Below are positions 31,001-37,000 of a DNA stretch of 64,000 bases, one piece after another (position 1 is the first letter of the stretch; every line of letters begins with the position of its first letter). Below the pieces are notes generated by a model. That model did not search any database, was not told where the DNA came from, and saw only the letters and a program-made list of their open reading frames with translations. Where the stretch lies: contig OZ231126.1 of NCBI GenBank assembly GCA_965153355.1, forward strand, positions 8,990,001-9,054,000, written 5' to 3'. The position numbers and the translations under genes were made by a program. This DNA comes from Flaccisagitta enflata (Eukaryota).

Positions 31001-34000
31001 GAGAGAGAGAGAGAGAGAGAGAGAGAGAGAGAGAGAGAGAGAGAGAGAGAGAGAGAGAGAGAGAGTGTGTGTGTGTGTGTGTGTGTGTGTGTGTGTGTGT
31101 GTGTGTGTGTGTGTGTGTGTGTGTGTGTGTGTGTGTGTGTGTGTGTGTGTGTGTGTGTGTGTGTGTGTGTGTGTGTGTGTGTGTGTGTGTGTGTGTGTGT
31201 GTGTGTGTGTGTGTGTGTCTTTGGCAATTACATACGTGTACGCGCATGTGAATGAACTTACCTCGACTCTGGTATGAATTTGACAAAGTGTAAGCCATAG
31301 CAGTTTGAGTGCTCCGGGCCCATCCCATGTCCAAGTGACGGTATCAAGCCTGTTTGGGTATCTAATGAGGGCGGGTTGCACCGGAACGGCAGGAATGAAA
31401 GCACCTGTAAAACAAGCAATAGATTGCAAATATAAAGTCGTGGCATACGAACGAACTTGTTCCACACATGATCACATCACACAACTAAATTAGAGTACAA
31501 GATCGTTTTTGTCATGTTTACTTATTTTTTTTCTTTGTCTTTGTTGTTTTGTCCTTGTAGTTTTTTTCCTTTTTGTTATCGTTGTTTTACTGCTTTTAGT
31601 CGCGTGCACGCGACTCAACAACCCACTTCGGTTGGTCTGTTGGTCGGACGGTCAAGCTTTCTTTTTTTATGATTTTTTCTTTGACCTCACTGCTCCTGCC
31701 CAAATGGTCTTGTGACCTCAAATATGGTCCCTGTCCTCCAGCACGCGACTGGGGTAGCCGTGTATACGGCCTTGTTTGGGTTTATTTTGCTTTTTACATT
31801 TTTGTCTATTTTGTGGTTTTTATTTGTATTTGTTTTGTTTTCATCAGGTAGTTTTATTCATTTTTGTGTCGCTTAGATGTGTTTGCAAATGCTATGGTTA
31901 TTACGCTTGTTGCCAAGTGGTCGTGGTTGTCGTTGCTCTCGTAGTTGCCGTTGCTCTCGTAGTTGCGGTTATTGTTGTTGTGGTTGTGATTGGTTTTGTA
32001 TAATTGTATTCCCTCTCTACCTGGCTTGAAAGTGATGAGGGCTCTGCCATTCGTCGTGGTTCCCTCGGGGAAGATGACTATTTGTGGCCATTGTCCTCTG
32101 GAATGAGCTCGACGTTTGATCTCTTGAATCGTATTCTGTTATAAGTCACGTACATAATCCATTATATATTCCCGAACAGTTCGTCACAAATGATTGCGAT
32201 TGAGTGTGGTTATGTTTTTGTGTGTTAGAGCGTGTACGTTTATACATACCTGTGTGTGTGTGTGTGTGTGTGTGTGTGTGTGTGTGTGTGTGTGTGTGTG
32301 TGTGTGTGTGTGTGTGTGTGTGTGTGCGGGCGCGCGTGCGTTTGTGTGTGTGCGTGTGTGTGTGCGTGCGCGTGTGTGTGTGTATGTTTAGCCAGTTTAG
32401 GTACACCGTGCACGAGAAAAGGCTTGCGCCAAAACTTAAGTCCATGTGCTCATCAAAGCAGTCTGTTAGCAACCCACATGCAGACAAGAACCATTCAGAT
32501 CATGTTTTGTATACCTGTCTGGAATTTGGATCTTCTCTCGTCACATAGACTGGTTGCAAAAAGTCAATCAACCCTAAAAAGGAGAGAGAAGAAGAAGAAA
32601 CTGTATTCCATCATATCATCAAAATATTCAAAACTAAGTAGGTGATTGGGAAACCAGTAATTAATTATGCATGTCCCATGACTAAAAGTTCTTGTCGTCA
32701 GATAAAGTAGATGTCGTCTATACTTGGTAATAAAGGGGAATTCATAATAGTGAGACAAAAAAAAATATAAGAGACTGAAATTACGAAAATGAACTAATAA
32801 TACAATATTTCATCAAAAGATTCTTATATATTCTCGCTAAAGCATCAATATTTTAACAAATTTTATAAAGGAACATTGTTTCTATTATTACCAACACCCA
32901 TCATCAATAAAACATCCACAGGGTTTATTTTTTTTCTTAATATGAATTCACCCATATCTCCTAGTCTTGACGACATCTACTGTATCTTGACACGCACCAC
33001 CAAACAACAAGACAAAACAGAAGTTACGTGCTAGAAATAATTCTGGATTAACTAAGGAGAACTAAGGTGATAATAATATGAGGTCATGTGCAACTAGAAC
33101 TAAAATATGTAAGATTAATCCCTGATCAGGCGGTAAACAATAAGACGTTTGTCCATTTCAGTTTTACATAAAATCTTCATCCCGTAGTCCACACATTCAA
33201 TCAACCTATTGAATACTTTTCCACCAAATTCTCAAAAAAAAAACTTTCACCTAGAATTTGAAGGGGTAATTTTTTAAAAAGAGGAGTGTTTATGAACCCT
33301 TACTTCCAATAATCGGTACAGACCGATTTTCGACTCTTGAGACAAAAGAGGGCATTCCGCAGGCGAGCGAGACGGTGCCCGCGTCCCAAATGCTGGCGTG
33401 AGGCGCCGCCACAATAATGGCCGCCCTCTCCTGGGTCACTTTTCTACCCAACACTCTCTTACGGCGAAGAGGAATGCCACCAGCCCACAGAAACCATTTC
33501 AACAACCACGCCACTAAGCCATGGGCCATCCTTTTTTTTTTTGTGGAGGAATGTTGGGAATGACAATAACATTTGGTGACAATAACATTTGGTGACGAAA
33601 ATATCTTGTAAGAAGACATTTAAAAAAACAGAGCCGGATACACGTCACTCCAGTCGCGGACGAATGGGTAGGGGCAGTAATGCAAAAAACCGCTTGCCAC
33701 GGACGGACGGACGGACACAGCAAGGTTTCGAGTCGCGTGTCCGTGACTAAGAATCCCAGCTCACATCATTCCATTTGTTCCTGTTGTCTGGTTTGTGTAA
33801 AAAGAAAAGGAAGAATTGCATATATAATTGAAGAAACATATTCTAGGATTTATTCTCTGTATTCTTCAAAGATTGCCCAATAGAAGAAAAATTGGTTACT
33901 ACGAACGAAAACAAAGTGAATGCCATCAATAGTAACTACGCCAAGATGAAGATACCTAGAAAAGCACCTCACCCTGAGAAATTTCAAAAACGGTATGAAC

Positions 34001-37000
34001 GTGTTATAAAATACAAACTAAGGTGAAAAAGATGTACATAGTTGCCAATTAAAAAAGGTAAAATAAGGGCTAGAAGAATTTTGAGTGAAAACAAAACCAA
34101 AATGTTGGGACGGAACTTATCAGAACTCAAACCAAGAGAACAGAAAAATAGTTAAAAACATGCTCGGAGATCTAGATACGTACGGCCGAGGATGGGCGCC
34201 CTGGCGCTCTCTATTCTGGAGACACCACCTGGGCAGTGGGCTGCCAAGACGATGGTCATAGCATCCCACCAGGTGGTGTGGGGACCGCAAACCAGGATCG
34301 GCGCAAACGCAGGATCCACCCTCGGGACTCCTATTATCAACCATTTTTTCGAGCCAATAACAAACAAACGGTATGGAAAATTGAGGCTAATCATTTGTTC
34401 TTGTTTTTTTTTTTGTTTTTTTTTTTTTTTTTTTTTTTTGGTTTCTTTTCAGGCTTTAGACACCCAAGTATAACATCAAGTAATAAATTCCGTTTGTTAA
34501 GGTATCATGTGGCCCTCACACCTGTGTTATGTTGTTGTTGTTGTTGTTGTTGTTGTTGTTGTTGTTGTTGTTGTTGTTGTTGTTGTTGTTGTTGTTGTTG
34601 TTGTTGTTGTTGTTGTTGTTGTGTGTGTGTGTGTGTGTGTGTGTGTGTGTGTGTGTGTGTGTGTGTGTGTGTGTGTGTGTGTGTGTGTGTGTGTGTGAGT
34701 GTGTGTGTGTGAGTGTGTGCGCGTGTGTGTGTGTGCGTGTATGTGTGTGTGTTGTCACAGAGTCATTCTCGTGCACTGAAGTCTGAACCGACACATTGGC
34801 GCAATGATGTCCTCACGGAAACAATGATGTCTGTGTGTGTTAGCGTGTGCATTTGCGTGTGTGTCTGTGTATTTGGTAACCGTGTCATTATGGTCAAAGT
34901 TTGTCGAGCACTGAACAGACTAGTCAACGTTGTCACTTCACATTAGCCAGTTATATTATACCCTTAATACGAAGACTGAGAAAGGACGAGAAGTAGAAAC
35001 TTAGACGTAGAAAGGCGAAGAAGAGAGACTCCCGTAGAAACCTTGCAAAAGAGAATATCATGTCTATCTTAATACAAAATAACTAAGAAAGCCAGAAATC
35101 TACCATTCTATCATGCAAAACCCATAATCAAGTTCACCAATCTCCATCTAGTCGAAACAGGCAGGATGCAGAAATAATTGGTATCATCAGTCCGTCTCGT
35201 TAACTAGGTCGTTTAACTGTGCTCACATGCCCGCCGTCATATTTCATTCCACACATTTTTACTGAAGTGGGCTGCGTTTTGTGACATCGCCTCGTGCCTA
35301 AAATGGTATTAATGGAAATCTATAAGCGTCCCAACGATAACTGATTGAACTTTGTTGGTATTTTATCCCATCTCGAGATGAATTTCCCAGATGCGCTGAC
35401 ATGAATTTGAAGCATAAAATAACCCATGGAATAAAATTTTGAAACGCCGTATAATCATGTAGGTGTTAGTATTGTTCGTGTTGCATCTTTTACAAGTGCT
35501 TGTAGTAATTGTAGTAAGTGCTTGTAGTGCTTGTAGTAATTGTAGTAATCCTATTCTTTAAGGCTATGTGAAGTCTAATCTTGGTCACGGCAAAATAGTG
35601 AATTATTCTGATAACATTTTTTTTCTTATTCATACTTCCAAGAAGGGGGTAATCCTTGACGCCAGCTTTTGCGACGACAGAAAATTCTGGTGGCATGACT
35701 GATAAGAGTATCATGTCAGCCCAAGAAACATGTGGGGCTGAGATAAAGAACAGGCAGCTTCAATGTTTTCGTAAAAATTGCTTCATCAAATGGATTCAGA
35801 TTTCTACAAAATACTATGATTACTATGAATATCATGATCTATCAATGACATCATTTACAATGTTTACATAATCTATGTGTGTGTGCAAAACAGCAATCAC
35901 TGGCCTAGATTTAACTTTAATCAAAACTTTTTGTAACTGTTGATTGATACCTATGACTATCATTGGCGCATTGGGTGAAGCGGTGCAGACACCGCGCTGT
36001 GATACCCAATGGAAACTGGAGCAAAAGAAACTTGATCGCAGTAGATTGCGGACGACCCACAGAATGTACATGTTCTTTTTTCTGAACCATTTTGATTTAA
36101 AGTTGTTTTGTTTTTTGGGTGAGGCAAAAAGCAGAGAATTCGTTAGCGACCTTGCCAACTCATTTGCATGCGCATCGTACAGAAATAACTTTTTTTTATT
36201 AACCATGTTATGTCAGATCCCAGGAATCCAAAATGCACACTATTTCAAAATGTATGCTTTAACAAATCGCTTTTTTATCACATAAAACACTCCCTGTGAC
36301 CAAAATGGGTACTTTTCTTCTTTTTAGATGCGTCCTCGCATCTCTAAAATAGGCTCTGCTTGTCGGTCGGTCAGTCGGTTGGTTGGTTGGTTGGTTGGTC
36401 GGTCGGTCGGTTGATTGGTTGGTCAAGCAACACACTCACTAAAAACATCAAATTTATGCATTTTTTCAACAGAAAAGTGGTCCTAACCCAGTAAAAGAAG
36501 CTTACATTTACTAATTCATTCAATGAAACATTTATTCATAACACATTTCTTTTTTAAATATTCATTCACAAAAATTCACATTCATAGAAAGAGGACGCTT
36601 CATTGGCCTACTAGGCCTTGTTCTAAGTTAGAAGTGGTTTTTACACAAAGAACTGCATGCTGTAGTTTTTTAACGCAACTCCTGGTCCCTGAAATGATTA
36701 CTCCTTACCCTTGCCATCACATTTGGGGCCCCCCCCCCCCCCCGTAAAATTGCTCCAGCCGTTTTTTCCCCATGCCCTTGGCCATTACACATGTTAAATT
36801 CGCCTCTAGCCCCTGACTTGCTCTCCTCCCCGCTTACCTCCTCCATCCAGTCAAAGGTTCTTTGCCCAATTCGTGCTCCATCCCATAAGTGGCGATGAAA
36901 GCAACTGGCCAAGCCAAGAGTAAAAACAAAAACATGAAGAATCCTCGAATCGGAACGATGGTCACTGTAGCGACGCCGATCTGTGCGAGGAAGACAGAGG

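Follow-up and report, generated by a model that had tools for sequence, protein, structure and literature searches.

A candidate cluster of three mutually exclusive motif I cassettes in an LPCAT-type acyltransferase gene of Flaccisagitta enflata

The subject of this study is a window of 64,000 nucleotides (nt) of Flaccisagitta enflata (Eukaryota; assembly GCA_965153355.1, contig OZ231126.1, positions 8,990,001 to 9,054,000 of the forward strand), the whole stretch of DNA that was analysed, within which all positions are counted. Judged by its sequence, the locus at about 37273-27341 on the minus strand is a single lysophospholipid acyltransferase gene of the LPCAT1/2 type, that is, one belonging to the AGPAT family (PF01553), with C-terminal EF-hands. 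Between its shared exon 2 (E2) and a further shared exon (S) lie three homologous modules, here called cassettes A, B and C, each with its own copy of the catalytic motif I, HxxxxD. We propose, with a probability of roughly 0.72, that the locus is a selected cluster of three mutually exclusive cassettes and that each messenger RNA (mRNA) carries one of A, B or C. A preliminary description made from the same sequence had already read the locus as mutually exclusive HxxxxD cassettes on an LPCAT chassis. RNA bears this out for B and C; for A there are conservation limited to the exons and one record of a relative, P0026.

Three cassettes in one frame

What makes the three modules interchangeable? 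They are homologous and free of stop codons, and all seven pieces concerned (E2, the two exons A1 and A2 of cassette A, the two exons B1 and B2 of cassette B, the single exon C, and S) have AG directly upstream and GT directly downstream on the minus strand (Table 1). The cassettes measure 131 + 102 = 233 nt (A), 80 + 147 = 227 nt (B) and 227 nt (C), each of them 2 mod 3, with identical entry and exit phases. With E2 in its sole open frame, E2+A+S, E2+B+S and E2+C+S are each open in one frame, and arginine is restored at both junctions by split codons, which are AG+A or AG+G at the entry and A+GG or C+GG at the exit. A premature stop follows if all cassettes are skipped, if any two are joined, or if all three are joined. 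The hybrids A1+B2 (278 nt) and B1+A2 (182 nt) are also in frame, and likewise A1 or B1 alone; none of these four forms was seen in the RNA contigs examined. The preliminary description holds on all these points. Its exon and cassette coordinates proved correct without exception when 32400-37100 was read on the minus strand with translated pieces and AG/GT borders; entry in phase 2, exit in phase 1 and an arginine at both junctions agree with the translations; and the frame shift that it expected with no cassette or with two appears as early stops in all such joinings.

Cassettes A and B each have an internal phase 1 intron, the two being differently placed, and C has none, so introns must have been gained or lost after the duplication. 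The 631-nt intron between B1 and B2 is largely filled by long (CAA)n and (CA)n microsatellites at 34530-34760.

The proposed scenario is as follows. An old tandem duplication of one exon block would have given rise to the cluster, and each mature mRNA would take exactly one cassette between E2 and S. Any other number of complete cassettes would shift the frame, bring an early stop and yield no enzyme, and such transcripts would presumably be removed by nonsense-mediated decay. The chosen cassette would supply the strand that runs into the active site, the catalytic HxxxxD, the next helix and the P-x-x-G kink, and motifs II-IV with the EF-hands would be common to all isoforms. The outcome would be three isoenzymes on the same chassis, chosen by regulated splicing.

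Junctions in RNA and transcripts of relatives

Are the cassettes used as alternatives in RNA? The runs consulted were four marine metatranscriptomes of one study, with 6-11% of sampled words (about the exonic share of the stretch), and one raw polyA run. Assembled Logan contigs of X1, X2 and X4 and the raw polyA reads of X5 were aligned to 32000-37300; depth on the exons of the gene was about 2-7x, and assembled contigs drop rare forms. All junctions reported from RNA have GT..AG ends on the minus strand (Table 1). Within one run, X1, the same E2 is joined to B1 or to C. The contig of X2 that covers B1 and B2 ends in 17 loose nt which are the reverse complement of the end of E2. For B2 to S in the species of the window, just 15 letters of one contig reach over, and this junction is not listed. 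Among the RNA joints none links two cassettes, at a depth of about 4x in contigs that drop rare forms. The earlier proposal to look for RNA junctions of B and C has thus been answered: E2>B1, E2>C and C>S were all found, and the outcome that only C is spliced in is excluded. In X5, 513 reads aligned, all on repeats, with 92% of them running on into unlike sequence and 0 on any exon; this run is uninformative on expression.

Two repeats in the introns of the gene also attracted RNA. One is a microsatellite of the (GGTT/GGTC)n type at 36320-36426, in the intron after exon 2, which has a summed word depth of 129 to 2529 and, in X5, some 45 reads on each strand. Loose ends are numerous there, and odd 'opposite strand' joints lead to 33699-33717, a (CCGT)n tract. 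This depth most likely stems from similar repeats elsewhere and not from this intron. The other is an inverted repeat at 32700-32987, in the intron from C to S, with 64-nt arms that are 75% complementary and lie 160 nt apart; it coincides with X4 RNA depth up to 18.7 in an otherwise silent intron, and may be an element like a miniature inverted-repeat transposable element that is expressed from other copies.

Transcripts of relatives extend the picture. The B2 exon as query gave 6 proteins among 18 candidates. P0008 (408 residues, JGI) and P0009 (542 residues, Logan) begin with exon 1, exon 2, B1 and B2, followed directly by S-exon sequence; P0009 is a full-length B form, and P0008 diverges after about residue 372. 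P0011 and P0016 are B forms truncated at the 5' end, and P0007, P0010 and P0012 are open reading frames (ORFs) from genomic read-through. P0004 (539 residues) and P0015 (550 residues) are full-length, mRNA-derived and contain cassette C only.

Age and conservation of the cassettes

How old are the cassettes? Their proteins match one another (B with C at about E 1e-8, A with B at 0.02, A with C at 0.2), and the C-form protein P0004 also matches cassette B of the window in tblastn at E 6e-7. Aligned identities between cassettes are 22/76 for A-B, 18/74 for A-C and 29/75 for B-C, or 24-39%. Identities to the counterparts in relatives are 69/77 and 60/77 for C, 66/77 and 64/77 for B, and 59/79 for A, or 75-90%. 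Since the cassettes are so much closer to their orthologues than to one another, the duplication is old and selected: as read from these sequences, the duplications long predate the divergence of the species compared, and each copy has been kept. In all three cassettes the H and the D of HxxxxD are retained, as is a P-x-x-G ahead of the exit arginine. A tblastn search with each cassette revealed no fourth copy in the 64 kb.

The nucleotide differences point the same way. Over B2, an X1 contig departs from the window 12 times in 147 positions, and all 8 of the differences listed are synonymous changes at third positions; the B1 part of the same contig has 0 differences in 79 positions. This B2 could be a divergent allele, could come from a sister species, or could reflect a chimeric assembled contig. 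In cassette C (X4), 3/3 listed differences are synonymous, so that B2 and C together give 11/11 listed differences at synonymous third positions. The single listed difference in exon 2 (1/1) is also synonymous, and of the three in the RNA contig of the motif III exon two are synonymous and one is R>K. Metagenome contigs were scanned for DNA of relatives that would allow a codon-level ratio of nonsynonymous to synonymous substitution (dN/dS) and for A-type transcripts; among 595 pattern stretches from the full-length alignment and 122 from the A2-exon alignment none was confirmed. With these identities and synonymous differences, the earlier statement that the cassettes are old, selected duplicates agrees.

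The exchanged part of the enzyme

Which part of the enzyme would be exchanged? The family assignment was scored on the orthologues P0004 and P0009, which are about 81% identical to the window model: PF01553 reaches 56.6 bits in P0004 and 50.4 in P0009 (cut-off 23), and EF-hand_7, one of several EF-hand families matched, reaches 59.7 and 62.4 bits. Among named ESM-Atlas clusters, 'lysophosphatidylcholine acyltransferase 2' and '1' come closest, each at 0.98. Among solved structures only PlsC of Thermotoga maritima (5KYM) was matched by sequence, at E 5.7e-6 with the acyltransferase part as query; full-length P0004 in a PDB sequence search gave EF-hand proteins only. An AlphaFold2 model of P0004, built on an alignment of 5 sequences, reached a mean pLDDT of 39 and a pTM of 0.23 and was unusable, and no structural claim is based on it.

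Motif I is present as PHVSWAD in A, PHTTWWD in B and PHASIWD in C, the last aligned to the HxxxxD of PlsC. In that alignment the strand before HxxxxD, HxxxxD itself, the next helix and the block up to P-x-x-G are all within the cassette. The classical motif II, described in the accessible part of PMC4280512 as aromatic-x-x-R following motif I, has its equivalent in the shared exon S, where Y-V-T-R aligns with F-L-D-R of PlsC 5KYM. Motif III, FPEGTT, lies in the exon 32135-32021, with T as the x residue of PEGT-x, and a VPVQP region in the next exon corresponds to motif IV. The earlier placement of an HxxxxD in every cassette thus stands; its count of motifs III and IV as the shared ones has to be amended, since the PlsC alignment, with the definition in PMC4280512, puts the classical motif II in S.

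Mutations in mouse LPCAT2, as given in the part of PMC12315963 available to us, help to place the cassette further. H146A and D151A abolish activity, as does G176A in the conserved kink formed by P173-x-x-G176, and R177 has to carry its positive charge. In the two-helix motif, a change of A115 (A115L/W) alters acyl-donor preference, and this motif contacts the membrane, with a suggested involvement with the membrane-resident acceptor (PMC12315963). H130, D135, P158, G161 and R162 of P0004 correspond to the mouse residues with an offset of 15-16. By this residue-number offset alone, R104/K105, R108 and A115 would lie inside the cassette and S87 and K94 in exon 2. The swapped unit would then be helix 2 of the two-helix motif together with the motif I block, and the arginine regenerated at the exit junction would be the counterpart of R177.

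What would such a swap change? From sequence, the isoforms may differ in acyl-coenzyme A (acyl-CoA) or lysolipid selectivity or in membrane positioning; the chances of this, and of a difference in substrate preference as such, appear about even. A narrower alternative, independent of the splicing question, is that the switch changes membrane association, localisation or regulation through helix 2, and not chemistry or substrate choice. The N-terminal halves of the cassettes are indeed the most divergent in the alignment, differing in charge and hydrophobicity, and fall on the motif described as membrane-contacting with a suggested role with the acceptor (accessible part of PMC12315963). However, residues around HxxxxD and in the next helix differ between cassettes too, A115L/W in that very helix shifted acyl-donor preference in mouse LPCAT2 (PMC12315963), and membrane and substrate effects do not exclude each other. 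We regard this purely membrane-directed explanation as unlikely. Rather unlikely in its full extent, and offered tentatively, is the broadest form of the functional idea, that splicing of one invertebrate gene takes the place that separate LPCAT paralogues have in vertebrates. A three-way switch of the motif I block and the pocket-lining helix, fixed long ago, would give enzymes whose choices of acyl donor or acceptor are distinct and which are deployed according to tissue, stage or stress. If this were true, the choice might lie, for example, between long-chain acyl-CoA and acetyl-CoA or between saturated and polyunsaturated donors, and the remodelling of membranes and of lipids like platelet-activating factor (PAF) would be directly controllable at the level of splicing. 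If the isoforms differ in substrate choice at all, the gene would be a natural chimera experiment, with helix 2 and the motif I block varied and motifs II-IV held constant, to learn which part of LPCAT sets acyl-chain or acceptor selectivity, and a clean case of splicing replacing gene duplication in lipid metabolism.

Cassette A and the case for three exclusive cassettes

Is cassette A really a member of the cluster? Several results speak for it. An exhaustive HMMER search with the 33-residue A2 exon gave 6 proteins at E<=0.001, all of them (6/6) A-type, three matching at 82%, two at 67% and one at 100%; the similarity extends from acceptor to donor, and the flanks are unrelated except between close pairs. 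The match of A2 to Pfam PF01553 is weak (E 0.063). P0019 has A1 and A2 in frame across a short intron. In P0026 (230 residues, JGI, from a 943-nt contig of a relative) no intron separates exon 1, exon 2, A1 and A2, from which it follows that the spliceosome recognises A in a relative; after A2 the record runs on into sequence shown by the genomic ORF P0021, to the same stop. Its best reading is that of an RNA partway through processing, with E2>A1 and A1>A2 already spliced and the long last intron, holding B and C, retained.

Several points weigh against a cluster of three exclusive cassettes. Cassette A (bins 35540-36247) has zero RNA depth in 4/4 runs (X1, X2, X4, X5), where exons stand at about 2-7x, and the A2>S junction was seen nowhere, either in the RNA of the window's species or in the records of relatives. 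The sole RNA-like record containing A, P0026, comes from a relative and keeps the intron after A2. The junctions of the window's species all come from single low-depth Logan contigs of one study, which transcripts with two cassettes could escape. Full-length transcripts of B type and C type from one same relative were not found; the closest B/C pair, P0004 and P0008, is identical at 76/86 and 203/213 common positions, that is, it differs at 10/86 and 10/213. The N-terminal half of the cassette is placed by residue-number offset only, the PlsC alignment starting at the strand before HxxxxD and leaving the first ~40 residues outside. Finally, none of the known mechanisms of exclusivity (competing RNA pairing, steric hindrance, incompatible spliceosomes) is seen here. 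A repeat search for docking and selector pairing gave only low-complexity inverted repeats (A/T-rich, microsatellite pairs). At 594 and 653 nt, the introns between cassettes exceed what steric hindrance would allow, and the donors are of the ordinary GT kind. With no such pairing, long introns and ordinary donors, exclusivity would come down to the frame logic with presumed nonsense-mediated decay and nothing else.

Could it be, then, that only B and C are productive, and that A is joined to exon 2 and not to S, as a decoy, a protein-truncating route or a decaying relic? The silence of A in the runs fits this, as does P0026, whose A2 runs into the intron and meets an intronic stop. The A1 exon as query retrieved no transcript-derived protein, just one genomic ORF, P0013, 98% identical and reading on into the intron, and A is somewhat less conserved than the others (75% to its orthologue versus 78-90% for B and C). 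Against these observations, the A cassettes of the window, P0019 and P0026 form an open frame of 78 residues without an indel in three lineages, identical at 51/78 to 58/78 positions and thus down to 65%, with H, D and P-x-x-G intact. The exit phase of A restores the arginine needed at the S junction, which a decoy would not need. The intron after A2 is the longest of the cluster because B and C lie inside it, and a contig of 943 nt that retains it is in keeping with a splicing intermediate. The acceptor of A1 is no weaker than one that is used, with a pyrimidine fraction of 0.45 in its last 20 nt, equal to the 0.45 of C (0.85 and 1.0 in constitutive exons). We therefore hold a cluster in which only B and C are productive to be distinctly improbable, and prefer that of three selected cassettes.

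That the modules are separate paralogous genes collapsed by mis-assembly, or different haplotypes, has next to no probability: no support for it was found beyond the B2 contig with 12 differences, which shows allelic or sister-species variation in the samples, whereas both the E2>B1 and the E2>C contigs of X1 match the single E2 of the window, the cassettes are just 24-39% identical with E2 and S single and no second copy of any part in the 64 kb by tblastn, the B and C mRNAs of relatives have highly similar flanking exons, and the phases and arginine-regenerating junctions fit one common pair of flanking exons.

Layout of the gene

The whole gene was placed on the minus strand, from 37273 to about 27341, by tblastn with P0004, a protein of 539 residues from a 2690-nt JGI contig that had been retrieved with cassette C as query and is 89% identical over the cassette. 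Exons of the window match it at 82-100%, except for the last, intron-spanning match. Automatic exon chaining gave 13 coding exons for the C form, in a model about 81% identical to P0004; two of its junctions (near 30698 and 29620) and probably its last exon are wrong, so borders there are approximate.

Table 1. Features of the acyltransferase gene and splice junctions observed in RNA
Feature	Position	Strand	Evidence
Coding exon 1, start codon at 37273	37166..37273	-	tblastn with P0004; exon 1>E2 RNA junction in X1 and X2; open frame
Exon 2 (E2), shared, with a hydrophobic N-terminal segment; phase 2 at its end, with AG; donor for all cassettes	36838..36980	-	borders; tblastn; RNA junctions to 35041 and 33530
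Cassette A exon 1 (A1), 131 nt	35951..36081	-	AG/GT borders, in frame; matches to P0013, P0019, P0026
Cassette A exon 2 (A2), 102 nt, PHVSWAD (motif I) and P-x-x-G kink	35636..35737	-	borders; relatives found by HMMER
Cassette B exon 1 (B1), 80 nt	34962..35041	-	RNA junctions E2>B1 (X1) and B1>B2 (X1, X2)
Cassette B exon 2 (B2), 147 nt, PHTTWWD (motif I) and P-x-x-G	34184..34330	-	RNA junction; mRNA products P0008, P0009
Cassette C, one exon of 227 nt, with PHASIWD (motif I) and P-x-x-G	33304..33530	-	RNA junctions E2>C (X1) and C>S (X4); P0004, P0015
Shared exon S, starts in phase 1 with GG; motif II equivalent (aromatic-x-x-R)	32515..32573	-	borders; tblastn; PlsC 5KYM alignment; RNA junction
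Shared motif III exon (FPEGTT)	32021..32135	-	tblastn, 97.5% identity to P0004; RNA junction; gene model
Eight remaining shared coding exons: motif IV region, linker, EF-hand region (borders approximate)	27341..31404	-	tblastn; automatic exon chaining; Pfam on P0004 and P0009
Junction exon 1>E2	37166/36980	-	X1, X2
Junction E2>B1	36836/35039	-	X1, 31-nt side
Junction B1>B2	34961/34329	-	X1 and X2, 79- and 83-nt sides
Junction E2>C	36837/33529	-	X1, 30-nt side
Junction C>S	33303/32572	-	X4, 33-nt side
Junction S>next exon	32515/32135	-	X1

Upstream of the gene, at 39235-40815 on the minus strand, an open frame of 527 residues matches the FYVE zinc finger (E 1.7e-8, 34.9 bits, cut-off 27.8) and is probably a large exon of a neighbouring gene. 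An Rfam scan of the window gave no match.

Comparison with known systems

Is such an arrangement known? Clusters of mutually exclusive exons are known already, including swaps in the core of an enzyme (coq-2, ACSL6), and an instance in LPCAT or AGPAT is apparently new: no description of one was found in the open full-text literature searched by titles and abstract starts, a scope that excludes supplementary exon lists and RefSeq isoform annotations, which could already hold one. In PMC9579139 the acyltransferase is tafazzin. The only splice variants of LPCAT2 that the accessible part of PMC4280512 mentions leave out about 40 residues, motif III among them, and are not homologous exon swaps.

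The closest known counterparts of the gene product are mammalian LPCAT1 (AGPAT9) and LPCAT2 (AGPAT11, lyso-PAF acetyltransferase), which share with it an N-terminal hydrophobic or two-helix part, the PF01553 motifs I-IV and C-terminal EF-hands. The H, D, P-x-x-G and following arginine needed in mouse LPCAT2 (accessible part of PMC12315963) are all present in the window gene. Its motif III reads PEGT-T, whereas LPCAT1 and LPCAT2 carry Cys at that position (accessible part of PMC4280512). Mammals have their LPCAT variants as separate genes, whereas here one gene would provide three motif I blocks by splicing. A further counterpart is PlsC of Thermotoga maritima (5KYM), a bacterial lysophosphatidic acid (LPA) acyltransferase. 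It aligns with the window gene at HxxxxD, at the block that precedes motif II, and at motifs II and III, and, unlike that gene, has no EF-hands.

As to the splicing, the exons 6a and 6e of coq-2 in nematodes, annelids and molluscs are a close parallel: these exons, too, are homologous and mutually exclusive and reshape a membrane enzyme in its core, and the swap changes the substrate used, is conserved across species and has been confirmed by RNA-seq (accessible part of PMC7434440). That system has two exons in a polyprenyltransferase, with a consequence proven genetically (PMC7434440), whereas the present one has three cassettes, two of them split by an intron, and a predicted consequence. 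In an acyl-lipid enzyme, the gate-domain exon pair of ACSL6 and ACSL1 is likewise mutually exclusive; it exchanges a short conserved motif to which control over the access of fatty acids is ascribed, and the forms are separate genes in some organisms and products of splicing in others (accessible part of PMC1543647). As described there, the ACSL swap concerns mainly one aromatic residue and no catalytic residues (PMC1543647), whereas in the gene of F. enflata about 77 residues would be exchanged, the catalytic His and Asp among them, between cassettes of 24-39% identity.

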